NCBI GenBank assembly: GCA_963740085.1
Contig: CAVUCU010000003.1
Coordinates: forward strand, 128,001 to 192,000
Direction of reading: 5' to 3'
Origin: Nitrospirota bacterium
GTDB lineage: Bacteria > Nitrospirota > UBA9217
Length of the DNA: 64,000 bases
Positions 2,955-38,138 of this stretch are shown here, piece by piece; positions within the stretch are counted from its first letter, which is position 1, and the number at the start of each line of letters is the position of its first letter. Under the pieces are notes generated by a model. The model searched no databases, was not told the DNA's origin, and saw only the letters and a list, made by a program, of their open reading frames with translations. A program made the translations under genes and the position numbers.

Positions 2955-3377
2955 TTATACGCTCACGACGTACACCGGACACGGCGCCAGGTTGATGACC
3001 TTTTCCACAATATGATCGCCGAACAGCCGGCTCAGGATGCCCTTCTTCTTTTTCGATCCCATGATGATGAGGTCGCACTGCTCTTCTTCCGCGACTTCAA
3101 CGATCCTCTGCGGGACATCGCCATGTTCAAGTCTCGTCTTGATCAGCGCCCCTTCGGTCTTCGCCATCTCGTGAATCTCCGAAACGGCCTTTGCACCGCC
3201 GTCGTCCAGCACGTCATTCAGGTTCTTGATCCCGGTCAGATCAAGATCGCCGTCGAACGGACGGAGCACCTTCACGACCGTGATCCAGGTCTTTTCATCC
3301 TTGGCCATTTTGATCCCTTGTTCCAGGACCTCTTTATGTCCATTCAAAGCAATAAGTACTTTTCTGTACCCTTTCAT
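2955..3377 (-). CDS. Universal stress protein (single USP domain)
   Basis: YRKVLIAL...GDVPQRIVEVAEEEQCDLIIMGS...FGDHIVEKVINLAPCPVYVV. Start moved to MKGYRK. Confidence 0.9.
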   Translation of the reverse strand: MKGYRKVLIALNGHKEVLEQGIKMAKDEKTWITVVKVLRPFDGDLDLTGIKNLNDVLDDGGAKAVSEIHEMAKTEGALIKTRLEHGDVPQRIVEVAEEEQCDLIIMGSKKKKGILSRLFGDHIVEKVINLAPCPVYVVSV

Positions 3378-3382
3378 TTTAC

Positions 3383-4246
3383 TCACCTCACTATCAGTAT
3401 CGGACGGGCGGCATGGGCAATGATCCGTTCCGCAGTACTTCCCATGATCGCCTTGTTCATGCCGCTCCAACCGTGGGTCCCCATGACGATCAGATCGTTC
3501 TTGAACTTGTCGGCGAGTTCAACGATCTTGTCGCTCGCATGGCCTTCCTGAACCACTGCCTTGATCTGTACTCCGAGTCCGGCTGCGATCTTCTTTGCGC
3601 CTTCGAGTATTTTCTCAGCCTCCTGGAAAAGGCTTTTCGTGATGGACTCGGTCTTATAAAAATTCACCATCTCTTCATAGCGGGGGATTACATAGAGGAC
3701 CGTGATCTCTCCACCATCGAGCTTGGACAGTTCGCAGGCACGGTCCAGCGCCTTTTTGCTGGACTCGGAGCCATCAAAGGGGACCAGCAGGGAGCTGTAT
3801 ATCCCGGTGCATCTGGTGCATTCCCTGGTCACCACCAGCACATCGCAGGGTGCGTTCATGATGACCTGTGACGCCACACTGCCCATCAGCAGCCGTTTGA
3901 GCCCCTTCCGTCCGTAGGTGCCGAGGGCGATAAGGTCGGCCTTCTTCCCGTTGGCCATGTCAACGATAACCTCGGGCGGCTCGCCCTCGCAGATCATCGA
4001 CTCAACATTGCCGTTCAGACCGAACTCATCGTGAATGTTATTTTTTGCGGCGAGACAGACGGATGTGCCGAACTCGAACCGTTTCTCCATCTGTGAGGGC
4101 AGAATGGAGAACTCTTCCTGGTCGAAATAGACCGCATGGATAAGGAAGAGCTTCCCCCCGTGCACCTTTACCCATCGGGAGGCCTCTTTCAGCGCGGCCT
4201 TGCTCGATAGCGACTCGTCATAGCCTACAACAATGGAGTTATACAT
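3383..4246 (-). CDS. Universal stress protein (tandem USP domains)
   Basis: Two repeats ending GTYGRKGLKRLLMGSVASQV and GTHGWSGMNKAIMGSTAERI. Confidence 0.93.
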   Translation of the reverse strand: MYNSIVVGYDESLSSKAALKEASRWVKVHGGKLFLIHAVYFDQEEFSILPSQMEKRFEFGTSVCLAAKNNIHDEFGLNGNVESMICEGEPPEVIVDMANGKKADLIALGTYGRKGLKRLLMGSVASQVIMNAPCDVLVVTRECTRCTGIYSSLLVPFDGSESSKKALDRACELSKLDGGEITVLYVIPRYEEMVNFYKTESITKSLFQEAEKILEGAKKIAAGLGVQIKAVVQEGHASDKIVELADKFKNDLIVMGTHGWSGMNKAIMGSTAERIIAHAARPILIVR

Positions 4247-5082
4247 CAGTGAGAACCTCCACCTTTCTTGAACACCATGCTTACGCCTACGCCTGCGCCA
4301 AGCGCGACGCCGATGGCAAGAAATCCGTAGATCGCCGGGCTGTTCTTCGCCATGGTTGATAACGTCTTGACCATGCCGACCTGCTCTACGTTGACCTTTG
4401 ACTGGGCCTGTTCTACGACTTTATTGTCCTTCACGGCATAGACCGAGACAAGGTAATCGCCGGGCTGGGCCTGGTAGGGCCAATCGGTGAGGATATAGTA
4501 TTCCTGCTTTCCGTCCGAGTTCATGGTTGTCTCGATTTTTCCGGACGACGTCGTATACACTTTGGACTCTTCCTTGAACTTGACGAACTCATCGAACCAT
4601 TTTGCCTTCTCTTCCTCGTTCGCGACCGGGGTTATATCCACATGTTTTGCAAGCGCGGGATAGCCGATTACATATTTTTCCCTTTCTTCGCGGCTCAGGA
4701 TGTCTTCAACCTTCTTCGTGCTGAAGACCTCGTAGAAGTTGGGGGTCTGATCGAACTTCAGTTTGCCCACGTTCATCCACAACACCCCCGCGACCTTGCC
4801 CTTCTGCTTCAATACCTGATGCCCTTCGGGAGAGGCTATCTTGATGACCAGGTCCACGCCCGGCTCCGATATGCCCCGCACGCTCACCGTGCTGCCATGA
4901 TAGAAGAAGTCGATGGTAATGTGGTCATGGTTTGCCCTGGCCGTAAGCATGGCCGACGCCGGTTTTGCACCGGCAAGCTGGAACAGGGAAAACACGAGCA
5001 TGAGAAGTAACGTGCCCAGGAATCTTGTACTGCCGATGAATCTGGCAAAGTGCATTATGAATGAATGGAGTTGAATATGCAT
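4246..5082 (-). CDS. TIGR02186-like exported protein with C-terminal membrane anchor, TauE partner
   Basis: Signal peptide ending ASA, ITIDFFYHG, KGKVAGVLWMN, C-terminal TM YGFLAIGVALGAGVGV. Directly follows a TauE gene. Confidence 0.7.
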   Translation of the reverse strand: MHIQLHSFIMHFARFIGSTRFLGTLLLMLVFSLFQLAGAKPASAMLTARANHDHITIDFFYHGSTVSVRGISEPGVDLVIKIASPEGHQVLKQKGKVAGVLWMNVGKLKFDQTPNFYEVFSTKKVEDILSREEREKYVIGYPALAKHVDITPVANEEEKAKWFDEFVKFKEESKVYTTSSGKIETTMNSDGKQEYYILTDWPYQAQPGDYLVSVYAVKDNKVVEQAQSKVNVEQVGMVKTLSTMAKNSPAIYGFLAIGVALGAGVGVSMVFKKGGGSH

Positions 5083-5083
5083 T

Positions 5084-6010
5084 TTAATGTCCTCCTACTT
5101 GAGAGAGAAGTAACGACGGGGTCAATGTAACCTCGAAGACGATCTTGACCGTCACCACGAGCACGATCACCGCGAGGAGGATCTTGAGCTGTTCGGCCTT
5201 GAGCTTCCTGCCGAACACGGTGCCGATCTGCGCCCCTACGGTCGAACCCAGGAGCAGGAGCACGGCGAGCAGGAAGTCCACGCTGTGATTGGTGTATGCC
5301 TGGAGGAACGTGACCTCGATGCACGTGAACAGGATCTGGAACAGGCTCGTACCGACCACCACGTGCATCGGCATCCTGAGCAGGTACACCATGATCGGCA
5401 CCATCAGGAACCCGCCGCCCACGCCCATGATCGCGGCAAGAATGCCGACAAACCCGCCCAGCACGATCGGAACGAACACGGAATGAGTGATGCCCGACTT
5501 CTCGAAGTGTGTCTGAAGCGGCAGGGATTTCAGGAACCTGCCCATCGCGGATTCTTTTTCTTTCTTCACTTCTTCTCCGGCCACATCCTTTTTCTTCCTC
5601 ATGCTCTGGAGGCTCTCGATGAACATGTAGACGCCGACGATGCCGAGCATAAGGATATAGGTAATCTTGATCACGAAATCGGCATTGCCCATGGCATGGA
5701 GGAGTTTGATGACCTGAACGCCGACGATGCCGCCGATAAATCCGCCGACAAGCAGATACAGCCCCATCTTAAAGTCCACGTTCCCCACCCTCCAGTGCGC
5801 ATAGGTGCCGGACGTGGATGCCGCCACGATCTGGTTGGAATCAGTTGCCGCGGCAACCGTCGATGGTATGCCGAACATGATGAGAAGCGGCGTCAAGAGA
5901 AATCCGCCGCCTACGCCGAAGAGACCGGAAAGCAGTCCCACGGCCAGCCCGAGCCCAACGGGGATCAGGATATTGATGCTGGTCAATGCTACAGGTAGAT
6001 ACAGGTACAT
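5084..6010 (-). CDS. TauE/SafE (TSUP) family membrane transporter 1
   Basis: Duplicated GLFGVGGGFLLTP / AIMGVGGGFLMVP motifs; about 8 TM helices. Confidence 0.92.
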   Translation of the reverse strand: MYLYLPVALTSINILIPVGLGLAVGLLSGLFGVGGGFLLTPLLIMFGIPSTVAAATDSNQIVAASTSGTYAHWRVGNVDFKMGLYLLVGGFIGGIVGVQVIKLLHAMGNADFVIKITYILMLGIVGVYMFIESLQSMRKKKDVAGEEVKKEKESAMGRFLKSLPLQTHFEKSGITHSVFVPIVLGGFVGILAAIMGVGGGFLMVPIMVYLLRMPMHVVVGTSLFQILFTCIEVTFLQAYTNHSVDFLLAVLLLLGSTVGAQIGTVFGRKLKAEQLKILLAVIVLVVTVKIVFEVTLTPSLLLSQVGGH

Positions 6011-6145
6011 CTCGATAGCTCCTTTTCTTTATTTAAAATTTTTACTGCAAAAACCCGCAGAGCCTCTGATTCGGCATGGAGCAGAGCGCATGAACTCCTG
6101 TGCTTTGCTCTCTGCCCTCTGCTTTCTACTCTTTGTCCTTCGCTC

Positions 6146-6637
6146 CTACGCCACCGCGCAGGCCTGCCTGGTCATGGTCACGATCGGCCGCGACGCTGTC
6201 CGCACAAGCCGGCTCAGATCCTTTGAAGTGACGTTCCCTGCCTCGGTAATTGCGGGGCTCAACACGACCTTATCGATACCCGCATGTTCCTTGATAAATT
6301 TTCTTATGCCTGATATCGCATCCAGACTTGTGGCATGGACATTCGCCTGAATTCCTTCGTTAAGGCATTTTTTCACAACAGTGTCTACCTCTTTTTCGTA
6401 GATGCCCTTCACGACCTGGGAAGTCATGATCTGTTGCGCCGTATCGTGCTCGCCGGCCTCGGCAAAGCTCACGGCTGTCATCATGTTTCCCAACTTATCC
6501 ATGAGTGAGCTTTGCTTCTGGACGAAAAGGAGCGTGATGTCCTCATACATAGCCTTTGCAAGCTCGATAGCGTACGAAACCCCTTCTTCCAAATTTTCAT
6601 CCCGGAAGGTGACGAACAACAACTGCCTCTTTCCCAT
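6146..6637 (-). CDS. Hypothetical USP-like protein with internal FAEAGE motif
   Basis: 163 aa, SD AGGAGG. USP-like start (LLFVT...GVSYAIELAK) and MMTAVSFAEAGEHDTAQQIM. Confidence 0.8.
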   Translation of the reverse strand: MGKRQLLFVTFRDENLEEGVSYAIELAKAMYEDITLLFVQKQSSLMDKLGNMMTAVSFAEAGEHDTAQQIMTSQVVKGIYEKEVDTVVKKCLNEGIQANVHATSLDAISGIRKFIKEHAGIDKVVLSPAITEAGNVTSKDLSRLVRTASRPIVTMTRQACAVA

Positions 6638-6681
6638 TTCTCTGCCTCCTTATGAGTAATTGGTTTCTTGCCCTGTACTAT

Positions 6682-6697
6682 TGCAGTATGAGTGCCA
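6682..6697 (-). promoter_or_regulatory. Sigma-54 (-24/-12) promoter of TauE operon 1
   Basis: Minus strand TGGCAC-TCATA-CTGCA, 45 nt upstream of the 6637 start. IHF-like AATCAGCATGTTA lies just upstream. Confidence 0.8.
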
Positions 6698-7007
6698 AGT
6701 CATAACATGCTGATTATGCTTAGTATTTTATACTGGCATGATTTTCTGTTGTTTCATATTTGAACGCAGATGAACGTTATCCGAGAGGAGAGAACGATTC
6801 CGGCAGAAGAAATGGCAAAAAACCCTTTATTAACAGACTTTCCATCCAATGGAATGAAGTTTAGCCGTCAAGAATAGCGGGGTCAAGAAAAGGCGTGGTG
6901 TTTAATTGTGAAACATGGTCTGGCTCACACAACCCGATGAGCACTTCCCTTTCGGGAAATTTGTTTGGCAGGGCAAGAAGGGGCGATATTACGCTAGAAC
7001 AATGGTC

Positions 7008-8348
<1,341 letters not shown>

Positions 8349-8488
8349 AATAGGTCCTTTTTTAACTGCTCAGGTTGGCCGCAAAAGAACACAAAGAGCT
8401 CAAAGAAAAAGCCAGAAAGCATGAAGTTCAGTCTTATTTCTCCCTGCGTTCCTTGCGTTCTTTCGCGGCAAAAAGTGAATTCGACTCG

Positions 8489-10076
8489 TTACTCTAAGTT
8501 ATCCTGCTGCACCGGCAAAACGATCACGAACCTCGTGCCCTTGCCTGGCTCGCTTTCGGCTGCGATATCGCCGCCGTGCTTCTTGATGATATTATACACA
8601 ATAGCCAGCCCAAGACCCGTACCCTTGTCCTTGGTCGTAAAGAACGGCTCAAAGATCTTGTCCAGTGACTCCCGGGGGATCCCCCTCCCCGTATCAGCGA
8701 TCCTGACGATGACCGCTTCATCCGCCTTCTTGAGCGAAACAGAAATGTCTCCCCTCCCCTGCATGGCATCCACGGCATTCGCAAACAGGTTTCCGAAAAC
8801 CTGCTCCATCTGCCCTCCGTCCGCGGACACGACTATCTGCAGCGGGTCCGGATCAAATGAAAAACGGATGTTTCCGAGATCACGGGTGCTCCCAAGGTGC
8901 CGATAGGAGTCAGTGATCAACCCCACCAGATCCACGTCCTTGAACTGCGGATCCCTTCCCCGCGCAAACTCGAGGAGCTCTCCCACGATCCGCTTTACCC
9001 GTTCCGTCTGACCGAGGATGTCACTCACCGACTCTTTGATCTCGGTCGAACAATGCTCACCCCCTTCCTTCGCGAGCACCTGTGCCGAAAGATAGATATT
9101 GTTCAGGGGATTGTTCAACTCATGGGCCACGCCGGCGGCGAGGGTACCGATGGCGGCGAGCTTTTTGGTCTGCATCAGCTCTTTGTTCTTCCGTTCGATC
9201 TCCGACCGCCCGTTCAGCAAGCTGGTCCCCCATGGTATTGAACCGGTCTATCAGCACCCCCACCTCGTCATGGGCATTTCCCCCGGAAGAAGGGATGGAT
9301 AGGTGCGGGTAGGAACCTTTACCCGTCTTTTCCACCACATTGATCAGAAGCATCAGCCTTTTTACAACGTTCGTACTGATGAAGAAGAGTGTCCCGATTC
9401 CCACGGCAAAGAAGAGCGGGAAGAATATCAGGATCGCGATCTGCGAAACCCGGATCACGGTCTCCACTTTTTCCCGCGCCACCCTGTCGAGGTCCTTGGA
9501 AATGACCATGATATCCTCGCCGGTCTTTCTAAGTGCGGTGATCTCCGTGCCGAGTTCGCGAAGGCCCTGTACGAGCGGATGGCCAGGGGGCAGGAGAAAT
9601 ACTTTTTCGAGAAAATCCGCGGATTGGAAGGGCTGCTCGATAAATGTGGATTCAACAAGCGAGAGATATTTTGCAGTTCCTTTGAATGAAGCTTTTGTCC
9701 GGTCGAAGAGCCCCGTCACCAAGGTCGCATCTCTCCGCATCACGCTGAAGCGGCGTTCATAGTCTTTAATACTGCTCCGCAAAGACAGTTTATCAGTCTG
9801 GTCGATATCCGGGTTCTGAGCAAGGAGGGTTTTCAGTTCAGCTAGATATGCAGTGACCGCCGCGGATTCTTCGTCAGCCTTTTGAGGACTGTAGAGAAAG
9901 AAATTCTTTTCGTGCCTCCGAAGCTGGAGCGACTTGCGGCTGATCGTGTCCGTGATCTCGAGATACCGGATTTCCTTTTTGATCTCGACAAAGCTCAGAT
10001 ATTCAAATGCGGCGAGGATGGCGATGATAGCCGCGCTGATAAGAAAGCTGAGCGCTATTTTTTTCTTCAGCGACAT
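8489..10076 (-). pseudogene. Membrane sensor histidine kinase split by a frameshift near 9208 (possible sequencing indel)
   Basis: ORF 9120..10076 has TM-periplasmic (RRHEKNFFLY)-TM-HAMP. ORF 8489..9220 has AHELNNPL, the N box and FFTTK..GTGLGL. The two frames overlap. Confidence 0.85.
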
Positions 10077-10300: not shown

Positions 10301-11155
10301 TTACGCCTTGACCACAAGCACCGGGCAGGGCGCATAGCCGATGACCCTTTCCGCCACACTTCCCATAAGAAGCCTGCGGAGGCCGGTCCTGCCGTGCGAG
10401 CCGATGACGATCATGTCGGCGGTCTGTTCCTTCGCAAGATTGGTGATCGCCTCGTCGGCCTCGGCCTCTCCAACAAAGGTTTCAGACCGAACCCCTGCCG
10501 CTTCGGCCTGTTTTTTCACCTCAGCAACGTAACCCTTTGCTTTTTTGACCAGGTCGTCCACAGCCTGAGGCGCCTCGGCATAAAATTCGGAAGGAACGTT
10601 CACAACCGAGATGACCCTGAGTTCCCCTCCATAGGACTTCGCGAAGGAGATCGCCCGTTCCATCGCTTTGACGCTGTACTTCGATCCGTCGGTCGCAAGC
10701 ACGATCTTTTTCCATCCAACAACAGTCCCGTTAGGGACGACGAGCACATCGCGCTGGGTGTGGCCGATGACCCTCGCCGTGACGCTGCCGATGAGCGCAC
10801 GCTCAATGCGGTGGAGCCCGCTCCTCCCCATAACGATCACGTCGCAGTTCTCAGCGTCGGCCAGATCCACAATGCGTTCGTGAACCTCGCCTTCTTCGCA
10901 GACCGTCTTGACGAGCATCCGCTCGGTCTTTGCGATCTTTTCAACTTCCGCGAGGGCCTCGTCGCACGGTTTCCGGAGCGCTGCCCTGATGTCTTTGATG
11001 CCAAGGAGCTCGATCTCGCCGTCATACGAGGGGACCACGGAGGTGACCGTTATCCAGCACTTTTCCTCGTTGGCCAGCTTGAACGCCTGATGGAGCGCGT
11101 TCCTGCCGGATTCAGAATTGTCAACAGCAACGAGTATCTTCCTATATCTTCCCAT
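10301..11155 (-). CDS. Universal stress protein (tandem USP domains)
   Basis: YRKILVAVD...GSVTARVIG and KIVLATDGS...GSHGRTGLRRLLMGSVAERVIG. Confidence 0.93.
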   Translation of the reverse strand: MGRYRKILVAVDNSESGRNALHQAFKLANEEKCWITVTSVVPSYDGEIELLGIKDIRAALRKPCDEALAEVEKIAKTERMLVKTVCEEGEVHERIVDLADAENCDVIVMGRSGLHRIERALIGSVTARVIGHTQRDVLVVPNGTVVGWKKIVLATDGSKYSVKAMERAISFAKSYGGELRVISVVNVPSEFYAEAPQAVDDLVKKAKGYVAEVKKQAEAAGVRSETFVGEAEADEAITNLAKEQTADMIVIGSHGRTGLRRLLMGSVAERVIGYAPCPVLVVKA

Positions 11156-12233
11156 GCTCCAGGGCTCCCGATGCCTGCTGCAGTTTCTCTGCCTGACGAC
11201 CTTGCCAGATCGCTTTCAGAATAATGAATGCGCCGATAAAGAGCGCTGCGATCATTATACCAAAACTCGAGGTTTTTAGGAAGCTCGCGGTACCTTCGTT
11301 CAAGGTGCTGATCAGACCGAGCTTTGAAAGATATACCGGGATCATGAGCCCCCTGCTGACCAGGACGATGACCATGATCGTGCCCATGACGAACTTGATC
11401 ATGAAAGGTTTCACATAGGTGGTGCCCATGGCGCCAAGCTGAATGCCAAAGAGCGAGCCTCCCAGGATGAGCATGGCAAGCCGGATATCAACCAGACCGT
11501 GCATGGCGAACTTGAACGATCCGCCCATGCCCATCACAAAGGCAACCACAAGCTCTGTGGCCGAGGCCATCAGGCTCGGGACCCCGAGGGCGTAGATCAT
11601 GGCGGGGACGCCGATGAATCCGCCAACCGCGATCGTCGCCGCCAGCAATCCGGTCGCGATTCCGAGGGGGATGGTGAAGAGGACCGAGATCCGGGCATCC
11701 AAGCTCTTGAAATACATCATAGTATAGGGGATATTGATCGACTGCACCCACTTCGCGAGCTTGCCGACCGTTTCCTTCTCATCGGTCTTGCCCGAGCGGT
11801 AGGTCTTGATGGCATCGCGCAGCACGAAACCGCCGACAACCGCGAGGATCACGACAAATGCGGCGCTGACATACAGGTTGGAACCGGCATCGCCGAAGGC
11901 CTTCTTGATCGATTCCTGTATATGCGCGCCGTACAAGACGCCCGCCTCAGCCGAAATACCGAAGATCAGGCCGAGTTTCACGTCCACCTGGCCATACTTG
12001 AACCGCTTGATGGACCCGACAAGCGCCTTGGGAAACTTATGCGCCATGTTGCTCGCCACCGCGACAAGACCGGGTACGCCAAGGCTCATCATGGCCGGCG
12101 TAAGAACGAAAGCGCCTCCGGAACCGATAAATCCGCTCACGAGACCACCGACAAAACCCACCCCGAGCAGATAAATCACCGTAAACAGGTCAAGGTGAAT
12201 GAACTGCGCCGCATTTCCTATAAGATCAGGCAT
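11142..12233 (-). CDS. TauE/SafE (TSUP) family membrane transporter 2
   Basis: GFIGSGGAFVLTP and TIAVGGFIGVP repeats; multiple TM helices. Confidence 0.88.
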   Translation of the reverse strand: MPDLIGNAAQFIHLDLFTVIYLLGVGFVGGLVSGFIGSGGAFVLTPAMMSLGVPGLVAVASNMAHKFPKALVGSIKRFKYGQVDVKLGLIFGISAEAGVLYGAHIQESIKKAFGDAGSNLYVSAAFVVILAVVGGFVLRDAIKTYRSGKTDEKETVGKLAKWVQSINIPYTMMYFKSLDARISVLFTIPLGIATGLLAATIAVGGFIGVPAMIYALGVPSLMASATELVVAFVMGMGGSFKFAMHGLVDIRLAMLILGGSLFGIQLGAMGTTYVKPFMIKFVMGTIMVIVLVSRGLMIPVYLSKLGLISTLNEGTASFLKTSSFGIMIAALFIGAFIILKAIWQGRQAEKLQQASGALEHGKI

Positions 12234-12234
12234 C

Positions 12235-12486
12235 TTACTTTACCTCCTTTTTCTTTTTGGCCGCTTCAATTCCGAGAACCGTCCAGAAATGTCCGGTAAA
12301 AGAACCGTGTACTAGTGAAAAAAGAAGTGCGGTACCGATCGGTAAAAATGCGTACCAGCCCCCGCGGGTGAATGCGCTGCTGACCAGGTCCTGATTCGAG
12401 AACAGGGCGGTAAACAGCAGGATCGAAAAAAAACCTGAGATGAGCAATTTTCCTACCGGCTTCTTCCTTGCGATACTTTGTGCCAT
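12235..12486 (-). CDS. Small two-helix membrane protein, TauE partner
   Basis: 83 aa, SD AGGAGG, two TM segments, FSLVHGSFTGHFWTVLGI; 1-nt gap to TauE. Confidence 0.8.
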   Translation of the reverse strand: MAQSIARKKPVGKLLISGFFSILLFTALFSNQDLVSSAFTRGGWYAFLPIGTALLFSLVHGSFTGHFWTVLGIEAAKKKKEVK

Positions 12487-12572
12487 GATAATTCCTCCTT
12501 GCGTAGAATAGATTATTTTTTTGCGGTGTTATGCGGTGTGATGTTGACTCCTGACTCCTGACTCCTGACTCC

Positions 12573-13076
12573 TCACGCCTTCGCCCCGTCCATAACCACG
12601 ACCAGCGGGCATTTCAGCTTCTGCCAGAGCTCCGAAAGCGTCTTGTCCCGCTTGTTGCAGTCCATGTCAAGACTTTGCGGAGACTCAATAACCGCGAAGA
12701 GAATCTCCTTTTCACTGTTCGTATAGTCGATAATCTGCTGTTTGAGACATCCGGTTCGCGGGATCATGCGGTAGGCGATGCCTTCCGCCTCGAGTTCTGA
12801 CCTGAAGTTAGAAAACAAAGGGTCGATGGTGAACTCGTCGTTGCCCGCGCCGGTAACATAGAGAATATCGAGGTCAGCACCGATCCTCTTGGAAGTATTC
12901 AATGCATACTTCAGGGTCCCGGCGTCGATCCGGCCCTCTTTGAGCGCAAGCAGGACCCTTCGCCCTTCCTTCATGATCGATCTGGCCGTCGCAGCCTGAC
13001 CTTCCTCCGCGAACGTTGCCGCCGCCAGCGCATTCTCGACGTTCTTCATTATTTTTTTTAACTTTGTCGCTTCCAT
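12573..13076 (-). CDS. Hypothetical protein: N-terminal FAEAGE-type motif + degenerate USP domain
   Basis: ALAAATFAEEGQAATARSIM, then RRVLLAL...LKYALNTSKRIGADLDILYV...LKCPLVVV. Confidence 0.8.
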   Translation of the reverse strand: MEATKLKKIMKNVENALAAATFAEEGQAATARSIMKEGRRVLLALKEGRIDAGTLKYALNTSKRIGADLDILYVTGAGNDEFTIDPLFSNFRSELEAEGIAYRMIPRTGCLKQQIIDYTNSEKEILFAVIESPQSLDMDCNKRDKTLSELWQKLKCPLVVVMDGAKA

Positions 13077-13108
13077 AGCAAACCTCGTGGGATCAGTCTC
13101 CCCGGTTC

Positions 13109-13279
13109 TTAGTCGGCGCGCAGTTCTTTTCTCGCGGCTGGTCTCTTGTAATCGTACTGAGACGGCCGGTCGTTCTTCCTGTCTTCATTTATGATCTGGC
13201 GCGCGGTCTCAAATTCCCCTGCTTCCGCGAATGAAGCGGCGACCATCACTGTCTCGAATTTCTTCATTAAGGTCTTCAT
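13109..13279 (-). CDS. 56-aa small protein consisting largely of the FAEAGE motif (not in ORF track)
   Basis: MKTLMKKFETVMVAASFAEAGEFETARQIINEDRKNDRPSQYDYKRPAARKELRAD*. Strong SD AAGGAGG; first gene after a sigma-54 promoter. Confidence 0.85.
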   Translation of the reverse strand: MKTLMKKFETVMVAASFAEAGEFETARQIINEDRKNDRPSQYDYKRPAARKELRAD

Positions 13280-13326: not shown

Positions 13327-13342
13327 TTCAACTCCTGTGCCA
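13327..13342 (-). promoter_or_regulatory. Sigma-54 promoter of TauE operon 2
   Basis: Minus strand TGGCAC-AGGAG-TTGAA (-12 variant), 48 nt upstream of ATG 13279. IHF-like TGTCAAGGTGTTA just upstream. Confidence 0.7.
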
Positions 13343-13545
13343 AAACAGAACAGCGTGCTAACACCTTGACAATATGCTCTTATTGAAAGGCGGCGTCCGA
13401 TCAGTCCTCATCCACGACTGTTTTATTATGCAATGGCCTTTGGTTGAATACTCACACCATGTTGATTTTTATGATTAATTTTGTCTGTTGCATCAAAACT
13501 AAAAACGTTGTAAAATGCAACCATCTCAAAATCTCAAGGTGTTGC

Positions 13546-15555
13546 ATGAAATTCTTTAATAAATCGGAAGACAATCATCAACTATTCGTTATTGAAGAAC
13601 TTCGCCGGAAGATCTCAGAGGCTGTGCTGCCACAACCGGTACAGAAGATCGCTGAACAGGAACTCGATCTGCTGAACAGGATCAGTTCCGCGTCGGCCGA
13701 GCACACGATCGGCATTACTTACATCGACTACCTCGCTTCCCTTCCCTGGAACAAAAAGACCGAGGACAACCTTGACATGGTCCGTGCTGAGCGGATCCTG
13801 AACGAGAACCACTTCGGGTTGAACAAGATCAAGGAAAGGATCATGGAGCACCTTGCCATCAAGGTGCTTATCATGAACAGGAAGGCACGGGTCCTGATCG
13901 TCGACGACGAGGAGATCGCAAGAAAAAATCTGGCGCATATCCTGATGAAGGAAAATTACGATGTAGTCGCTGTTGCTGACGCCGAAACGGCAATCCGGGA
14001 GTTGGAGTCTTCTGAAATTGATGTAGTGCTTACCGACCTGCGCATGGGCAAGATCGACGGCATGGACCTGCTGGACCGGGTCCGGATAAAACACGCCGAC
14101 ACGAAGGTCGTTATGGTAACGGGCTATGCCACGGTCCCTTCGGCAATCGAGGCCATGCGGAAGGGCGCATTCCATTACCTGGCCAAGCCCTACAAACTCG
14201 ATGAGGTGCGCGAGACCGTAAAGCGGGCAATGGAGCAGCGGGCGCTCAAACCGAGCACCAAGGGCACCGTGCTCTGTTTCACCGGCCCTCCGGGAACCGG
14301 CAAGACCTCGCTCGGGAAATCCATCGCCCGCGCCCTTGGGAAAAAATTTACGCGGATCTCCCTCGGCGGTCTCAAGGATGAGGCCGACATTCGCGGACAC
14401 CGGCGCACCTATGTGGGCGCCAAGCCCGGCAGAGTGATCGAAGAGCTTCGCCGGGTGGAATCGGCCAATCCCGTCATCATGCTTGACGAGCTCGACAAGA
14501 TCGGTCATGACTTCAAGGGAGATCCCGCTTCGGCCCTGCTTGAAGTGCTCGACCCGGAGCAGAACCGCTCATTCACGGACCACTACCTCGATGTTCCCTT
14601 CGACCTTTCGAGCGTCATGTTCATCCTGACCGCGAACGTCCTCGACTCCATCCCCGCCCCGCTCCGCGACCGCATGGAGGTCATCAAGTTTACCGGCTAC
14701 ACGCGGGAAGAGAAGACCCATATTGCTCGGCAATTCCTCTGCGTCAAACAAATTCGGGAAAAAGGCCTCTCCCAAAACCAGGTCGTCTTCACGGATGAGG
14801 CCGTGGACAGGATCATCCAGGAATACACGCGCGAGGCCGGCATCCGGAACCTCGAACGAAGGATCGCCACGATCTGCCGGAAGATCGCCCGGGAATCGCT
14901 CCAAACCGCGGGCAGCGCGGAGATCGTGACCATAACCCCCGGGTCAGTCCAACGCTACCTCGGAAGGAGAAAGTTCCAGTTCGAAGTGATCGAAGAGCAG
15001 GACCGCGTCGGCGTGGCCACCGGACTCGTGCGCACCGAGACCGGCGGCGAGATCATCTTCGTCGAAGCCGCCCAGATGAAGGGAAACAAGGAACTCATCA
15101 TCACCGGATCCCTCGGTGACGTGATGCGCGAATCCGCCCAGGCCGCGCTCAGCTATATCCGGAGCAACGCCGGGTCCTTCGGCATTGCTGAAGACTTTTT
15201 TGAGCGCCAGGACATCCACATCCACGTACCGTCCGGCGCGATCCAGAAGGATGGCCCTTCTGCCGGCGTCACCATTCTCGCGGCGCTCCTGTCGCTGTTG
15301 ACCAAACGGCCTGCGCGCAGGGACGTGGCCATGACCGGAGAGATAACGCTGACCGGACGGATCCTCCCCGTCAGCGGCATCCGGGACAAGGTACTCGCGG
15401 CCAGGCGTGCCAGGGTCAAGATCGTGCTCGTGCCCGCGCGAAACCGGGTCGAGGTGGAAGAACTGTCCGAAGATATACGAAAGGACGTCGACATCCGGCT
15501 TGTCGACACCGTCGCTGAAGTGGTGGATTCTGTGCTTGCCGGTCATCAGAGATGA
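13546..15555 (+). CDS. lon: Lon (endopeptidase La) variant lacking the N-terminal substrate-binding domain, with a receiver domain inserted before Walker A
   Basis: [10 protein letters not shown]...[11 protein letters not shown], then REC (IVDDEE, LTDLRM, VTGY, LAKP), then [32 protein letters not shown] (catalytic Ser) and RDKVLAA (catalytic Lys). Start taken at ATG 13546. Confidence 0.92.
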
Positions 15556-17079
15556 ATTACACTCCGAGCATCAGACAGAAGATAACACTCGGCTATTACG
15601 CCATCGTCGCCATGATCATCGGATTGTCCGTGTTCACCTTTCTGGAACTGCGGTACATCGAGAAGAAGATCATGTTCGGCGAGGCCATCTCGGAATTTTT
15701 CGATGCCACACTTGAGATCCGGCGCTTCGAAAAAAATTATTTCCTCTACGAGCAGCATTCGGACTACGACGAGAATATCCAATACGTGTCCCGGGCCCAG
15801 GACCTCATCGACAGCAACATCGCCGGGTTCACCTCGATAGCATCTGCTGAGCAGATGGCAAACGTACAGGAAAGTCTTAAAAAGTATAAGAACTTGATGG
15901 ACCAATACGCGAAGATCGGCAGAGCAATACACGGTACGAAAGAACCTGTTTGCCGCAGGGATCCGGACCACCGGGAAAAACATAATCACCATAGCAGAGA
16001 ATATCTCCAAGACCGAGCGGAAGAACCTTCAGCAGATCCTGAGCAGTTCCCGAAACATCCTTCTCGTCTCGATCGTGCTTCTCTCTCTGGCGGCTATCGC
16101 CATAGGCCAGATACTTTCGCGAATGGTGGTCAAACCGCTGAAATCGCTTGAGAAGAGCATGGGGGTTATAGCCGGGGGTACGTTCGAGCGAATTGCCATA
16201 AAATCCAAAGACCGTGAGATCGTCTCGCTCATGAACGCGTTCAACAAAATGTTGAAAGAGCTCGAACTGCATGAGCGGCATCTGATCCAGTCCGAGAAGC
16301 TCGCGTCCCTCGGCACCCTTCTCTCCGGCGTTGCGCATGAATTGAATAATCCCCTGTCGAACATCTCATCGTCGAACCAGATACTGATGGAGGAATTCAA
16401 GGAAGCCCTCGAGAAGCAGTCTTCGCTGCCCTGGCCGCTGGACCCCGGCTTCACCAAGGAACTGCTCTCCCAGATCAACGATCAGACGGACCGGGCCCGG
16501 AATATCGTCCGTTCACTTCTCGACTTCTCGCGGGACAGGGCGTTCAAAAAAGAATCGCTGTCGCTCAAGAACCTTTTTAACGAGACCATCCAGTTCGTGA
16601 AGGGACAGGTGCCGACGAACATAGTAATCTCCCTTTCCATACCCGAGGACATCGCGATCTTTGCGGACAAACAGCGGATGCAGCAGGCATTTTTAAATTT
16701 GATCAAGAACGCCATTGATGCGATCTCATCCGAGGAAGGGACGGTCGCCATCACGGCCGTGAAGCGCCGGGCGATGGACGACATTGAAAATGAAAAGACC
16801 GGAATCTACAACTATCTCAAGTACCGCGGAAAGTGCACGCTGGACCAGGACACGGTCGACATCGAAATACGGGACAGCGGATCCGGGATACCGCTCGATA
16901 TCATTTCGAAGATCTTCGACCCTTTTTTCACGACCAAGGATGTCGGCAAAGGCTCCGGGCTCGGCCTGTTCATTGTCCACGAGATCATCAAGGAGCATGA
17001 CGGCTGCATTGCGGTGGACAGCCATCCTGACAAAGGCACAAGGTTCCTGATACGGCTGCCGATCGGGCAAGAAGCCTGA
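15552..17079 (+). pseudogene. Membrane sensor histidine kinase split by a frameshift near 15925 (possible sequencing indel)
   Basis: 15552..16151 has TM + RRFEKNYFLY. The alternative frame is open from about 15930 into ORF 16075..17079 (TM-HAMP-AHELNNPL-FFTTK..GSGLGL). ATGA overlap with lon. Confidence 0.85.
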
Positions 17080-17243: not shown

Positions 17244-18605
17244 ATGCAAGATCAGGCAAGACTACTCATCATCGATGACGAACGGATCGCGCTCAGAAAC
17301 CTCGAGCATGTTATGAAGAAGGAAGGCTACGACGTGACAAGCACGCAGAGCGGGCCGAATGCGCTCAAGCTGCTCGATGAGCAGCAGTTCGACGTGGTGC
17401 TCACGGACCTGCGCATGGAAAAGGTGGACGGCATGCAGATCCTGAAAAGGACCCGCGAGTTCTACCCGGACACGGAAGTGATCATGATCACCGGTTATGC
17501 CACGCTCGACTCGGCAGTCGAGACCATGAAGCACGGCGCGTTCTACTACATCGCCAAGCCGTTCAGGCTTGAGGAAGTGCGCAAGGTCGTACAAGAGGCG
17601 GTGAACAAGGTCCGGCTTAAAACCGAGAACCGCCATCTCCGGGAACAGCTTGAGACCTACCAGGGCAAGGTCAAGATCGTCACCCAGGACCCGACCATGC
17701 TGAAACTGCTCGACACCGCGCACCAGATCGCGCCCACGGACTGCAACGTGCTCATCACGGGCGAGAGCGGGACGGGTAAGGAACTCTTTGCGCGGTTCAT
17801 CCACCTGAACAGCGGCCGCGCCGGAGGGCCGTTCTTCGCCGTCAACTGCGGCGCCTTTAACGAGGAGCTTTTATCGAACGAGCTCTTCGGCCACGAAAAA
17901 GGCGCCTTCACCGGCGCGAACAACGCGAAAAAAGGGATCATCGAAATGGCCTCGGCAGGCACGCTCTTTCTCGATGAGATCACCGAGATGCCGCCATCGA
18001 TGCAGGTGAAACTCCTTCGTGTCATTCAGGAAAAGGAGGTCCTGCGCGTCGGCGGCACCGAATCGCTCAAAGTGGACGTGCGGTTCATTGCCGCGACGAA
18101 CCGGGATATCCATGATTCCATGAAGACCGGCGCCTTCCGCCAGGACCTCTACTTCAGGCTGAACGTGATCTCGATCCGGATCCCGCCTCTCGCAGAACGC
18201 AAAGACGACATCCCCCTGCTCTGCTACTATTTTTTAAAGAAATACGATGTGCTGATGAAAAAAACCGTGGCCGAGATCAGCGAGGAAGTGCTCGCACTGC
18301 TCATGAACTATGACTTCCCCGGGAATGTGCGGGAACTTGAGAACATCATCGAACGCGGAGTGGCGCTCACGAATGGCGGCGCTATCGAGACCGGCCATCT
18401 GCCCGAGGACCTGCGGGAACTCAGCATCAAGACCTTCCGGAAGAAGGAGGGCAGGATACCGTCGCTCGATGAGCAGGAACAGACATATATCCAGTGGGTG
18501 CTCGGCGAGGTCGGCGGAAACAGGACCCTTGCGGCCCAGATACTCGGCATCGACCGGGTCTCGCTCTGGAGAAAGCTGAAGAAGTACGGGCTGGACGCGG
18601 AATGA
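17244..18605 (+). CDS. Sigma-54-dependent NtrC/AtoC-family response regulator
   Basis: REC, GESGTGKE, ELFGHEKGAFTGA, GNVRELEN, HTH. Start at MQDQAR, with SD GGAG. Confidence 0.95.
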   Translation: MQDQARLLIIDDERIALRNLEHVMKKEGYDVTSTQSGPNALKLLDEQQFDVVLTDLRMEKVDGMQILKRTREFYPDTEVIMITGYATLDSAVETMKHGAFYYIAKPFRLEEVRKVVQEAVNKVRLKTENRHLREQLETYQGKVKIVTQDPTMLKLLDTAHQIAPTDCNVLITGESGTGKELFARFIHLNSGRAGGPFFAVNCGAFNEELLSNELFGHEKGAFTGANNAKKGIIEMASAGTLFLDEITEMPPSMQVKLLRVIQEKEVLRVGGTESLKVDVRFIAATNRDIHDSMKTGAFRQDLYFRLNVISIRIPPLAERKDDIPLLCYYFLKKYDVLMKKTVAEISEEVLALLMNYDFPGNVRELENIIERGVALTNGGAIETGHLPEDLRELSIKTFRKKEGRIPSLDEQEQTYIQWVLGEVGGNRTLAAQILGIDRVSLWRKLKKYGLDAE

Positions 18606-20832: not shown

Positions 20833-21912
20833 CTATGACGACGCTTCCTGATGCTGTTCGAAGATCTCCTCAAATGCCGGTGCGGTCTCCTTGAACGCCT
20901 TGAGCACAGCGGGGTCGAAGTGTCCGGGCAGGGTCCTTCCGTCGCCCTCGGTGATGATCTTGTACGCCTTCTCGTGGTCAAAATCCGGTTTATAGGGTCG
21001 TCGGCTCCGCAGGGCGTCATACTGGTCGACGAGCATGACGATCCTCCCCTCAAGGGGGGTCTCCTCTCCCTTGAGCCCCCGCGGATAGCCGCCTCCGTCC
21101 CACCGTTCGTGATGGTTCAATGTGATGGCGGCAGCCATCTGGATGTTGGGGTAGGCTGATTTGGACAGTATCCTTTCGCCGATGGTCGTGTGTGACTTCA
21201 TCGTTTCAAATTCTTCACGCGTCAAAGGCCCCGGTTTCAGCAGGATGCTGTCGGCGATCCCGATCTTCCCGATGTCATGCACCTGGCTGGCAAAGGTTAT
21301 TGCCTCGACAAAATCCACGTCCAGGTCCATGCCTTCGGCGAGCCTGCTTGAATAGAACCCTATCCGCGCGATATGGGCGCCCGTGTCCGTATCCCTCAAT
21401 TCTGCGGCTGCCGTCAACTTCTGCACGATTTCGTTGCTCATGTTTTTGAGTTCCCTGAAAGCCTCATCGAGCTCCAGCGTCCTTCTCCTGACCTCCTCTT
21501 CCAGGTTCTCGTTGTGCCTGAGCAAAAAGTCCTGTGATGCCTTGATTTCCAGGAGGTTCTTCACGCGCAGTGTCAGCTCCGACCGGTCAATGGGCTTGGA
21601 AAGGAAATCGTTCGCGCCGGCCTCAAGGCCCTTGAGCTTCGATTCCCGGTCATGCAAGGCCGTGACCATGATGATCGGAGTGTTCGCCGTTTCAAGGTTG
21701 GCCTTCATGCGCCTGCACGCCTCGTACCCGTCCATGACCGGCATCATGATGTCGAGAATAACGAGATCGGGCCGGTACTCACTGCTCTTCTGAACCGCTT
21801 CCGCGCCGTTGGAAGCCGTTTCAATAACGTACCCCATGGAAACAAGCCAGTTGACAAGCAGTTTGACATTCGGTTCCTCATCATCCACGATCAGGATCTT
21901 TTCATTGCTCAT
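20833..21912 (-). CDS. Response regulator with HD-GYP c-di-GMP phosphodiesterase domain (RpfG-like)
   Basis: REC + [29 protein letters not shown]. Confidence 0.93.
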
Positions 21913-24900
21913 CTATCCAGCACCTCCCTCACCTTTCTCAAAAGCTCTTTAGGGGCAAAGGGTTTGCGCATCACTTCCATCCCCGCCTCGATCTCCATTC
22001 TGCTGATCATGTCCATGGTGTAGCCGCTCAGAAAGAACGCCCTGACCCCGGGACTTATCGCCTTGATCTCCTCATACGCCTCTTTCCCGCTCTTCTTCGG
22101 CATAACCAGATCGAGAATGACAAGCTGGATGCGGTCTTTGTTCTCCCGGTATTTCGTCACCGCTTCATCCCCGTCCTCGGCGATGATGACATTATAACCA
22201 AAGGACTCCAGGATGAGTCTTGTCAGTGTCCTCAATGAGGGATCGTCCTCGGCCACAAAGATGGTCTCCGTGCCTCCTTTTACGCCGTCGGGGGCCTCGA
22301 TCTGTGCGCCGGATGCGCCCTTGTCTTCGATGAGCGGCAGATAGATCTTAAACGCGGTGCCTTTTCCTGTTTCGCTGTAGCACCGTATGTAGCCGTTGTG
22401 CTTTTTTACGATCTCATAGGTGATGGCAAGTCCGAGTCCCGTCCCCTCGCCGATCCCTTTCGTGGTAAAAAAGGGCTCGAAGATCTTCTTCTGTGTTTCG
22501 GCATCGATCCCTTTGCCGGTGTCGGCAATGACAATCAACGCATACGCGCCGACTTTGCCGTATCCGTAGGCGGCTATGTAGTCATCATCCATGTGCGCGG
22601 TTTCGGTCGTGATCATAAGGTGTCCGCCTTTGGGCATGGCGTCACGCGCGTTCGTTGCCAGGTTCATAAGCACCTGTTCGATCTGCGAACTGTCGGCCAT
22701 GACCGTCAGGGGCCTGTCGACAAGGTCAACGCGCAGATCGATATCCTCGCCTATGACCCGACTGAGCATCTTTTTGATGCCGGAGATGATCCCATTCACC
22801 TCAACCGGCTTCACCTCCGCAACCTGTTTTCGGCTGAAGAGCAGCAGCTGCTTGGTAAGCACTGCGGCCCGCTCGGCAGCGGCGAGCACCTCATGCATCT
22901 GTTCGCGTGAAGGGCTCCCGGGCGAGAGGTCTTCCATTATCATGCCCCCGTACCCGATGATCACGTTCAGGATGTTGTTGAAATCATGTGCCACGCCACC
23001 CGCAAGCTGGCCGATGGCTTCCATCTTTTGCGCGTGCCGAAGCTGATCTTCAAGTTTGCGGTGCTCTACTTCCTTCTGTTTACGAGCGGTGATGTCCTCA
23101 TAGATGCCCAGTATGCCGATGACCCTTCCAGCGTCATTGTGCATCGGCACCTTGAAGGTGCGCAGCCAGATGGTTTGCCCGTCGGGCGTAGTTTGCGGCT
23201 CTTCGAATCCAATCTTCTGTTTGTCGGAATCCATCACCTGCTTGTCGTCGGCACGGTATAGTTCGGCCTGTTTACTCCAGGCCATCTGAAAGTCATCCTT
23301 GCCGATCAAATCCTCCGGGCGCGATAATCCCGCATCGCGCGCAAATGCCGTATTACAGCCAAGATAGCGCAATTCGGCATCCTTCCAGAACACACGCAGA
23401 GGGGCGTTTTCCACGATTGAGCTGAGTATGTTCCGCGACTCAATGATCGACATCTCCGTCCGCTTTCGTTCGGTAATGTTGTCGAAAACCGCGACAAAAT
23501 ACTCCTTTTCCGTGCTATATACGGAGATCGCGAGCCAGCCGCCGAAAGACTCTGAAAATGTTTCGAACTGCTCCGCTTTGCCGGTCAAAGCGACCCTGCC
23601 GTAGATTACGAACAGCTCCGGCAGAGACTCTTGTATACCCGGGATCACTTCCGAAACTTTTTTCCCGATGACGTCCTTCAAGCCGGTCAATTTTTCGAAT
23701 GCGTCATTTACCTCGAGATAAATAAAGTCCCGGGGGACATCATTTTCGAACAGCATCCTGCAATACGCAAATCCTTCGAGCATGTTCTCGAACAGCAGAC
23801 GAAAGCGTTTTTCGCTCTTCCGCAGCGCGGTTTCCGCTTCATCTTGCGCCGTCCTGAGCCGGATCGCGTCAATCCCATAGGATAGATCTGCAGCCAGGTC
23901 GGAAAGCAATCTCACTTCACTCTCGGAGAACGGGTCCTGTTCCCGGGAGTATATATTCAAAGCGCCGAAGGCCTTCCCGTCTTTAAGCAGAGGAATGGCG
24001 ATCACGGAGGCATATCCGCGTTTGAGAGCTTGTTCCCGCCACGGCGCGAATATGGGATCGGCTAATATATTGCGGGACAATAACGGCTTGCCCGTCCTGA
24101 TCGCCGTGCCGGTCGGTCCCCTGCCCCGTTCGGTATCCGCCCACGTTATCTTCGCGGATTCAAGGTAGCCCTCTTCAAAACCGGCGTAGGCGACCGGTCT
24201 GACCGTTTTCCCCTCATCGTTTTGAGCATAACCGATCCAGACCAGGGCATAACCGCAATCCTCAACGATGACCCGGCAAGCCTCGTTCAGATACCCGCGT
24301 TCATCACTGGCGGTCATCATGGCCTTGCTGCTTCTGCTCTTCGCCTTCAATATCCTGTTCAGACCCCTGAGTTCCTCCTCGGCCTCCTTACGTTCCGTGA
24401 TATCCGTCCATACGCCTACGGCCTGTATCGGTCTGCCGGTCGCATCGCGCACTACGCGGCTGTTATCTTCGATCCAGTGGTACGCGCCATCCTTGCCGCG
24501 GATCCGGTATTCCGTTGAGTAACCTGGACCCTTCATTCCCTCGCTAACCACTGCCAGGATGCGGTCGCGGTCTTCCGGGTGCAGGACTTCCAACCACCAA
24601 TCATATCGACAGACATCGGGCGCGTTGTAGCCCAACAACCGTTGAATATTATCGCTGACGAACACGGGGGTCAGGCTCTGCCCGTCGATCTTGAGGCTGT
24701 AGATCACCGCCGGAGTGTGCTCCAGCAAATGGAGCAACTTATCATGCGTCTCACGTAATTGCGGCTCAACCTGATAGTGATCGCTTCTCTCATCGGCTTC
24801 CTTCAGCGCCCTGCGCACCGCAGGCGCAAGACGGAACAGTTTGGACTTGATCACATAATCCGTTGCGCCTTTTTTCACGGCTTCGATGACAACGTCTTCA

Positions 24901-25166
24901 CCGATGGTCCCGGAGATGAAGATAAAAGGCACGTCCGGACATTTTTCCAGTGAAACAGCGAGCGCCGACATGCCATCGAACGAAGGCAGGGTATAATCGG
25001 CCAGGACGAGATCGACGCCGCCCCGGTCAAGGGCCGCGATGAAGTCCGCTCTGTTGTCAACGCGGTGGATTTCGCAGTCAACACCCTCCTCGTTCAGCCT
25101 TTCCCGAATGAGCTCTGTGTCATTCGGGCTGTCTTCGAGAATGAGAATATTAAGCTTCTCGTTCAT
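21909..25166 (-). CDS. Cytoplasmic hybrid histidine kinase (REC-PAS-GAF-PAS-PAS-HisKA-HATPase-REC)
   Basis: N-terminal REC, PAS ends (DITERK), GAF (RGRGPTG), [21 protein letters not shown]-terminal REC. Confidence 0.93.
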
Positions 25167-32921: not shown

Positions 32922-33140
32922 GGTGCTCCAAACAGAATAAAATTTAACCACAGAGACACGGAGACACTGAGAAAAGATAACTATTTATTGACGAGAGATT
33001 CTTCAGTCGCTCACGCTCCTTCAGAATCACAAAATGACGGATTCAATAATCTTTTTTCTCCCTTTCCCCCTCTTCTCCCTTTCTCCTTTATTATTTTAAT
33101 ATTTTCTCTGAGTCTCTGCGTCTCCGCGGTAAAGGCGACC

Positions 33141-38051: not shown

Positions 38052-38138
38052 TGGAAAGCTCCTAACCCCGAGAAGCCGACGTCCTCACGCCGCAGTCTCG
38101 GGAAATCCTCTGCAAGATAATAAACATGCATTGACGGC

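Follow-up and report, generated by a model that had tools for sequence, protein, structure and literature searches.

The closest described relative of the system considered here is the 'three-component system' DVU3303-DVU3305 of Desulfovibrio vulgaris, which Rajeev et al. 2011, in the parts of the paper drawn on here, describe as a Lon protease carrying a receiver (REC) domain (REC-Lon), a histidine kinase, and a sigma-54 activator, and for which they proposed a branched pathway with activation of Lon by phosphorylation. The same source reports that DVU3305 binds the operon that encodes it and also DVU3302-3298 on the divergent side (coding for three hypothetical proteins, a membrane protein, and a UspA protein), gives the DVU3305 site as GTTGCGATATGCAACA and a Thermodesulfovibrio yellowstonii site as ATTGCAAAATGCAACG at -28, and notes orthologs in T. 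yellowstonii and others. In the sections consulted, Kazakov et al. 2015 (PMC4641369) place a sigma-54 promoter on DVU3302-3298 and none on DVU3303-3305, and Trotter et al. 2023 (PMC10102598) report a pairwise cofitness above 0.9 for DVU3303-3305, the three genes being detrimental in chlorate while their target DVU3299 (a 'putative anion transporter') is required under the same condition. Here we describe the counterpart of this system in a 64,000-nucleotide stretch of a Nitrospirota bacterium (contig CAVUCU010000003.1, positions 128,001 to 192,000; hereafter the window). The REC-Lon kind has thus been published and is biochemically uncharacterised, and a literature search made mainly by title and abstract returned no REC-Lon study beyond the D. 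vulgaris papers, and no biochemical or structural one. What we add is the point at which the receiver enters the Lon chain, the kinship of that receiver, and the existence of related gene clusters that lack the protease.

The coordinates of the gene, its parts, and its neighbors are collected in Table 1. The longest open reading frame (ORF) version of the gene opens at a TTG at 13444, and as relatives begin MKFF..., we take the ATG at 13546 as the start. In the resulting protein of 669 amino acids (aa), Pfam recognizes Response_reg at residues 116-225 (PF00072; E 1.6e-27, 96.3 bits against a cut-off of 30.2), AAA at 243-382, Lon_lid at 405-454, and Lon_C at 463-664 (E 9.4e-81), with no match to LON_substr_bdg (PF02190) anywhere in the 669 residues. 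With the NCBIfam model TIGR00763 'lon' (endopeptidase La), the protein reaches 735.7 bits (cut-off 608.05), split over two stretches, while the models for LonB, LonC, and sporulation Lon stay below their cut-offs (TIGR00764, 87 versus 516.6; TIGR02903, 85.7 versus 678.8; TIGR02902, 84.6 versus 723.3), and searches against solved Lon chains in the PDB gave E-values down to 1e-167. Read codon by codon from the DNA, the receiver holds the acidic pair D120 and D121, the phospho-acceptor D164 (in LTDLRM), T192, Y211, and K214, and the Lon portion holds an intact Walker A motif (GPPGTGKT, with K253), Walker B (D314/E315), the pore-loop Y289, and the S572/K615 dyad. None of these receiver and Lon residues varies among the 76 REC-Lon proteins aligned, and K253, D314/E315, and Y289, together with N364, R376, and R434 (which we take to be the sensor and arginine residues of the ATPase), are invariant over 100 aligned REC-Lon and canonical Lon sequences. 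By its family score and catalytic residues, the gene product is therefore a LonA-type protease with predicted ATP-dependent activity. A first-pass annotation, made from the letters of the window alone, had proposed a Lon protease with an intact receiver and no N-terminal domain and had named the acidic pair, Asp, Thr, Lys, Walker A/B, pore loop, and Ser-Lys dyad as intact; the family models, the codon readout, and the structural alignment below all agree with it.

Table 1 Coordinates of the REC-Lon gene, its parts, and surrounding features in the window.
Feature	Coordinates	Strand	Remarks
REC-Lon gene	13546..15555	+	669 aa plus stop; uninterrupted translation
N-terminal part, residues 1-111	13546..13878	+	Five helices; homologous to the last ~95 residues preceding the canonical LonA ATPase core
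Inserted receiver, residues 115-230	13888..14235	+	D120/D121, D164 (14035-14037), T192, Y211, K214
Linker, residues 231-241	14236..14268	+	Joins REC helix 5 to ATPase strand 1
AAA+ ATPase core and lid, residues 242-460	14269..14925	+	Walker A 247-254, Y289, D314/E315, N364, R376, R434
Lon S16 protease domain, residues 461-669	14926..15552	+	S572 (15259-15261), K615 (15388-15390)
Palindrome GTTGTAAAATGCAAC	13507..13521		Candidate activator site; one mismatch to GTTGC-N5-GCAAC published for DVU3305; -39 from the lon ATG
Sigma-54-type promoter candidate TGGCACAGGAGTTGA	13328..13342	-	TGGCAC-N5-TTGA, its TGGCAC-N5-TTG match at 13329-13342; faces the divergent operon
Cognate membrane histidine kinase (HAMP-HisKA-HATPase_c)	15552..17079	+	Two frames, change between 15911 and 15937
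REC-sigma54 activator-HTH_8 regulator	17244..18605	+	453 aa from ATG 17244; GAFTGA at residue 220
Divergent five-gene operon	10301..13279	-	Order matches DVU3302-3298 in Table S5 of PMC3333781, consulted in part
56-aa protein	13109..13279	-	First gene of the divergent operon
167-aa Usp-like protein	12573..13076	-	Divergent operon
83-aa protein with two transmembrane segments	12235..12486	-	Divergent operon
TauE/SafE permease	11142..12233	-	Divergent operon
Tandem-Usp protein	10301..11155	-	Divergent operon
Lon-less paralogous module	2955..10076	-	Frame-broken kinase, REC-sigma54 activator (7008..8345), 162-aa protein, TauE (5084..6007), Alph_Pro_TM (4246..5079), two Usp genes
REC-HD(HD_5) response regulator and adjoining hybrid kinase	20833..25166	-	
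Two adjacent Mrp/Hyf-like membrane complex gene sets	32385..47883	-	Proton_antipo_M, NADHdh, Complex1_30kDa/49kDa, Oxidored_q6

The alignment to Bacillus subtilis Lon (3m6a) provides a clear picture of how the receiver is accommodated. Residues 16-108 align with residues 10-102 of the chain (E 1.4e-18) and residues 234-668 with residues 102-534, and therefore about 125 extra residues enter the Lon sequence at a single position, the rest being collinear with Lon; the start of the protein corresponds to approximately position 248 of full-length Lon (7p6u). The 'KERIxEHLA' helix, followed immediately by strand 1 of the ATPase in canonical Lon, is here the last helix before this point (residues 93-111). 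Judged from these alignments, the receiver is an insertion into the Lon chain rather than a fusion to its end, a point newly added here. In comparison with canonical LonA proteases (E. coli, B. subtilis, Meiothermus taiwanensis, and human LONP1), the protein retains the same ATPase, lid, and Ser-Lys protease (whole-protein identity 47-54% to 34 canonical Lons); however, it is missing the N-terminal substrate-binding domain (~250 residues) and the long coiled coil, and instead carries a receiver just before strand 1.

We modeled the protein with AlphaFold2 on 100 aligned sequences (mean predicted local distance difference test, pLDDT, 84.1; predicted template modeling score, pTM, 0.73), and the best structural matches of the model are LonA chains, with a TM-score on the target of up to 0.91 (7yuh). 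In the model, five helices (residues 6-25, 30-45, 51-65, 78-87, and 93-111) precede a receiver of five strand-helix units in a (beta-alpha)5 fold that runs from strand 1 at 115-119 to helix 5 at 218-230, and ATPase strand 1 follows at 242-246, leading into Walker A. Only 3 residues separate helix 93-111 from the first receiver strand, while on the other side the linker is the least confidently modeled stretch of the protein (pLDDT below 50 at residues 235-239), and the region 233-241 is also the least conserved stretch of the REC-Lon family (mean identity 0.50). The modeled receiver is thus held tightly on its N-side and flexibly on its C-side. The first-pass annotation had placed the receiver at 13885-14238, that is residues 114-231, within a residue of the model at either end. 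Its description of the receiver as lying inside the AAA+ module holds if helix 93-111 is counted in that module, as structural convention does for the helix preceding strand 1 of the ATPase large subdomain, and does not hold by the Pfam AAA boundaries, which start after the insertion.

The title of entry 4ypl describes a LonA construct without its N-domain that crystallized as a hexamer, and by analogy it is plausible that REC-Lon forms a ring despite its missing N-domain. A complex prediction with two copies of residues 88-241 (75-row alignment, run without controls) gave 0.20 and 0.18, below the mark of 0.42, and is uninformative either way on REC dimerization.

A gene of this kind might in principle be an assembly chimera of a response-regulator gene and a lon gene, and a chimera at the receiver borders was what the first-pass annotation had named as the finding that would undo its reading. 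This is excluded, as the same junctions recur across genomes and Lon-homologous sequence flanks the receiver on both sides. A family search with residues 1-300 as query, considered at its best 120 clusters at 90% identity, found PF00072 in 120 of 120 and Lon_C (PF05362) in 117, the other 3 being fragments of 411-475 aa, while PF02190 was listed for none of the 120. Lengths in these clusters center on 664-676 aa, they are named no more specifically than 'endopeptidase La' or 'ATP-dependent Lon protease', most come from metagenome-assembled genomes (MAGs) of Nitrospirota, and the closest named relatives among them, again Nitrospirota MAG proteins, share 89% identity across the query. A pattern scan of species-representative genomes returned at least 78 loci, of which at least 22 encode a contiguous arrangement of N-terminal helices, receiver, and Walker A; counts out of 22 given below refer to the REC-Lon loci among the matches listed. 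These lie in Thermodesulfovibrionales and other Nitrospirota and in Desulfobacterota (Desulfomonilaceae, Syntrophobacteraceae, Desulfobulbales, Desulfonema, and Desulfovibrionaceae), and include the complete genome of Maridesulfovibrio sp. FT414. The junctions are shared by 117 of the best 120 clusters, by at least 22 loci from independent genomes, and by the published DVU3303. The Lon N-domain is absent from 8 of 8 locus proteins scanned, even when each is taken at its longest ORF. In a tree of the ATPase-protease region, built by a quick method with the receiver columns removed, 25 REC-Lon rows and 38 canonical Lons are split by one branch (SH-aLRT 99), which fits a single origin of the architecture as judged from these sequences.

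Clustering at 50% identity reduced the REC-Lon architecture to a few representatives, of which P0122 is full length and the rest are fragments. We looked for multi-REC forms among the long, higher-scoring representatives (P0121, P0124-P0130, P0132, P0134, P0138, P0140, P0142, P0144, and P0156), and found Lon proteins in which two or three AAA modules are present but a REC is not; P0123 has one AAA and two Lon_C stretches, so that 16 of the 17 scanned representatives are not REC-Lons and only P0122 has the architecture. The tandem-AAA Lon proteases met in this way (889-1675 aa, with two or three AAA modules ahead of one Lon_C) are unrelated to the REC insertion; one carries ankyrin repeats and one a Lon N-domain.

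The receiver is akin to that of the regulator encoded in the same locus. The Lon receiver and that of the neighboring activator are 51% identical (E 3e-44), and in a 65-row REC tree 23 Lon receivers, 16 partner-activator receivers, and 7 further activator receivers, the last also from activators adjoining a kinase, form a clade (99/97) with 19 other receivers outside it. By this tree, the receiver of the partner activator is the closest relative of the Lon receiver, which is new here. Four of these 7 further activators (L019-L021 and L024) belong to clusters that hold the full TauE/Usp/kinase/activator set with no Lon match at E up to 1e-8, and therefore the protease is an accessory to the core circuit and not a requirement. 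Taken from these gene sets, the Lon-less paralogous module of the window, and the trees, REC-Lon is an add-on to an older two-component circuit, with a receiver from the same stock as that of the activator.

The placement of the receiver has a parallel in NtrC-family activators (NtrC1, DctD, and NtrC), where phosphorylation governs ring assembly and where an AAA+ core is immediately preceded by a receiver belonging to the same subfamily. REC-Lon differs from these in its output, which is a protease rather than sigma-54 remodeling, in its 11-residue flexible linker in place of a coiled coil, and in the Lon sequence that also precedes the receiver. AtoC, FixJ, NtrC, and NtrC1 are the best matches to the receiver, with the RssB and CpdR families also among the matches. 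RssB and CpdR are receiver proteins whose phosphorylation determines the choice of substrates by an AAA+ protease; these are separate adaptors that act in trans on ClpXP, whereas in REC-Lon the receiver is part of the protease chain.

Downstream, the lon stop and the kinase start overlap as ATGA (ATG 15552-15554, TGA 15553-15555), and the kinase (HAMP, HisKA, and HATPase_c) is followed by a REC-sigma54-HTH (helix-turn-helix) activator. This is the overlap and the order of histidine kinase and NtrC-type regulator that the first-pass annotation had given, although it missed a frame change in the kinase at 15911-15937, and also the divergent TauE/Usp operon that is the proposed target. Around the 22 loci, several of which are cut by contig ends, the ORFs of 200 aa or more within ~3.5 kb include a sigma-54 activator in 15, a HisKA kinase in 14, either of the two in 18, TauE in 13, and Usp in 11. 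Pfam (E up to 0.05) returns nothing for the 56-, 83-, and 167-aa proteins of the divergent operon, for the sensor part of the kinase, or for fused relatives of ~270 aa; the first divergent gene of Desulfobacterota (~255-305 aa) joins parts resembling the 167-aa and 83-aa proteins.

Some of the small and Usp-like proteins share an N-terminal motif, A-x-x-F-A-E-A-G-E-[FH]-[ED]-T-A-[RQ], that has no Pfam match. It is found in the window in the first two products of the divergent operon and at 6146..6634 (also on the minus strand), and in loci L002, L006, L013, L019-L021, and L024, either as a stand-alone protein of 56-70 aa or fused to larger ones, with a tandem repeat in L024. We considered whether these 'FAEAGE' small proteins are Lon-specific degron carriers and rejected this, as the motif is present in the Lon-less clusters too and is thus not tied to the protease.

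The sequence between lon and the divergent operon holds a candidate activator site and a candidate promoter. A palindrome with one mismatch to the DVU3305 site lies just upstream of lon; its location carries the weight, since the whole window has as many as 5 one-mismatch matches to GTTGC-N5-GCAAC, with 2.32 expected. A palindrome with at most one mismatch is present within 700 nt upstream of lon in 19 of the 22 loci, and 16 of the 22 have at least two sites, often 86-91 bp apart. The sigma-54-type candidate matches TGGCAC-N5-TTG, which occurs a single time in 64 kb, on the minus strand (0.51 expected), and a minus-strand TGGCAC-N5-TTG[A/T] is found in 9 of the 22 related loci, the locus counts for both palindrome and promoter element being without a shuffle control. 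The strict sigma-54 pattern TGGY-N7-TTGCW gave 2 matches in the window against 1.95 expected, none of them near lon, and a sigma-70 scan found no promoter-like site upstream of lon. The strand of the candidate promoter, which faces the divergent operon only, agrees with the published part of the D. vulgaris picture consulted in PMC4641369.

This organization closely matches that of DVU3303-3305, as far as the published descriptions consulted go. In both, lon is followed by the kinase and then the activator, five divergent genes encode three small proteins, a membrane/TauE protein, and a Usp protein, and a GTTGC-N5-GCAAC palindrome lies beside lon. The sigma-54 promoter that D. vulgaris is described as having on the divergent operon alone has a candidate counterpart in the window. 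The window differs in having one clear site plus degenerate half-sites, nearer the start codon (-39), in its Nitrospirota-like lineage, and in its frame-broken kinase. Desulfovibrio/Maridesulfovibrio loci (L022, L036, and L042) and a Desulfovibrionaceae MAG (L013) served as stand-ins for the DVU3303 sequence. The T. yellowstonii ortholog is probably THEYE_A0745. Judged by gene order, operon content, sites, and the published descriptions, the locus is the counterpart of DVU3303-DVU3305.

Taken together, these data are probably best explained by a LonA-type protease whose inserted NtrC-type receiver makes it the second response regulator of a kinase shared with the sigma-54 activator, with phosphorylation controlling proteolysis. 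The membrane kinase would phosphorylate both receivers, that of Lon and that of the activator. From the sigma-54 promoter the activator would then drive the divergent operon (three small proteins, a TauE-type anion permease, and a Usp protein), which we infer to be its transcriptional target, while phosphorylation of D164 would alter the state of the Lon ring and hence its ATPase and proteolysis, whether through assembly, gating, or nucleotide handling along the short path from receiver helix 5 to ATPase strand 1. A single signal would in this way be coupled to both transcription and degradation. The first-pass annotation had likewise read the locus as a branched pathway of transcription and proteolysis, and this matches the proposal of Rajeev et al. 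2011 (consulted in part), the cofitness above 0.9, and the shared clade of the Lon and activator receivers; phosphotransfer to the Lon receiver, the control of proteolysis by phosphorylation, its direction, and the substrates are what we infer beyond these. For phosphotransfer to the Lon receiver the evidence is indirect, namely the overlap of the lon and kinase genes and the clade that this receiver shares with the activator's.

As for direction, activation is most likely, with the sign being something that sequence cannot decide. We think it rather unlikely that the sign is the opposite one, such that unphosphorylated REC-Lon is active and phosphorylation of D164 turns the protease off, for instance by disturbing the ring, which would let stress signaling stabilize substrates while the activator induces the operon. 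The tight 3-residue junction on the N-side and the flexible linker on the C-side fit either sign. D. vulgaris in chlorate benefits from loss of the signaling genes and is harmed by loss of DVU3299 (PMC10102598, in the part consulted), and therefore the net sign of the pathway is not simple. Against negative control, receiver-controlled enzymes are for the most part switched on by phosphorylation. Activation is also what Rajeev et al. 2011 proposed in the text available, and the lon, kinase, and activator mutants share a phenotype, which fits Lon acting with the signal unless polarity explains it.

An extension of the preferred reading, which we regard as doubtful, is that the receiver has taken over both the place and the role of the lost N-domain, being located at the ring's entry face and serving as a gate or assembly switch operated by phosphorylation, and that the substrates are products of the operon (such as the Usp-like and small FAEAGE-motif proteins). 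If the receiver is such a gate, a membrane kinase would turn a protease on directly, without an adaptor; if the operon products are the substrates, one signal would both make and time-limit regulators of a TauE anion exporter.

The preferred reading of two receivers served by one kinase is hinted at by a comparison, in 16 genomes and with 5000 permutations, of Lon and activator receivers from the same genome and from different genomes, which suggests that the two are co-adapted to one kinase, the effect being small. In helix 1, same-genome pairs have 0.629 versus 0.574 for cross-genome pairs, an excess attained in 2 of 5000 permutations; the strand 5-helix 5 region gives 0.600 versus 0.544 (55 of 5000), while two other active-site loops have no same-genome excess (0.594 versus 0.619 and 0.611 versus 0.613).

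Several points weigh against this reading, beginning with the comparison itself. The remainder of the receiver also has a small within-genome excess (0.467 versus 0.450; 95 of 5000), and because of this, and as the genomes are not independent of one another, the helix-1 signal is suggestive only; moreover, helix 1 and the strand 5-helix 5 region are presumed kinase contacts, chosen on the pattern of kinase-regulator structures. In the REC tree the Lon receivers form two groups, Nitrospirota and Desulfobacterota, so that one origin is neither forced nor excluded by it, and the four Lon-less clusters have the same TauE/Usp/kinase/activator genes. The -12 element of the candidate promoter is always TTGA or TTGT, with A or T where the consensus TTGC has C. 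In D. vulgaris, the cofitness may partly reflect polar effects, which are possible because lon is the first gene of its operon, and the word 'polar' is absent from the text of PMC10102598. Within the scope of our literature search, no experiment demonstrating phosphotransfer to, or regulation of, any REC-Lon was found. Finally, with its cognate kinase gene frame-broken, the system may be inactive here, or the break may be an assembly indel.

The kinship of the receivers also bears on a different role, in which the Lon receiver is a phosphate sink, or docks on the kinase or the activator receiver, and the protease degrades components of its own pathway as a feedback device. The two receivers are close paralogs in one clade, alike in the presumed kinase-contact helix, and should therefore compete for the same kinase; Lon is also dispensable for the core circuit in the Lon-less clusters, as expected of a modulator. 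We nevertheless hold this to be quite improbable, since lon mutants should then oppose kinase and activator mutants, yet their cofitness exceeds 0.9 in the part of the D. vulgaris study consulted. The full conservation of the ATPase and protease residues argues that proteolysis matters, without naming a substrate.

The state of the kinase raises the further question of whether the system functions in this organism at all. Intact relatives align over residues 2-121 with the frame of 15552, and over residues 131/137-501 with that of 16075. In the window, two further sensor kinase genes each carry one frame break as well, at ~9215-9250 in a paralog of the REC-Lon kinase (10076..8489, minus strand) and at ~26669 in a HAMP-PAS kinase (27547..25686, minus strand) whose PAS domain is cut mid-way, while window ORFs of 669-1085 aa elsewhere run as single frames. 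These breaks may be an assembly artefact or real decay. If the locus were decaying, the kinase would be a pseudogene and REC-Lon an orphan or constitutive protease, and the three broken kinases would fit this. On the other side, lon and the activator gene are unbroken and retain every key residue, and in a metagenome-type assembly a shift of frame by one base can be an error; the 60-64% identity to an intact relative in both frames points to a recent or artificial break. We therefore consider a decaying locus very unlikely, and retain the reading of a protease under the control of the shared kinase.

A second paralogous module, without Lon, lies directly beside the REC-Lon locus. Further along the window, a REC-HD(HD_5) response regulator adjoins a 1084-aa PAS-GAF-PAS hybrid kinase with two receiver stretches, and within the two Mrp/Hyf-like gene sets a 1004-aa ORF combines an antiporter-like subunit with the 30-kDa and 49-kDa subunits in a single fusion.

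Proteolysis by AAA+ enzymes is normally steered by separate adaptors or degrons. If the preferred reading is correct, a protease with its own kinase-addressable receiver would be the most direct known link from a two-component system to protein degradation, and REC-Lon would offer a natural model of an AAA+ ring controlled by an inserted switch domain. The family, widespread among sulfate reducers and in Nitrospirota, has cultured, tractable hosts, and D. vulgaris genetics, in the published portions drawn on here, tie REC-Lon to chlorate and anion stress.

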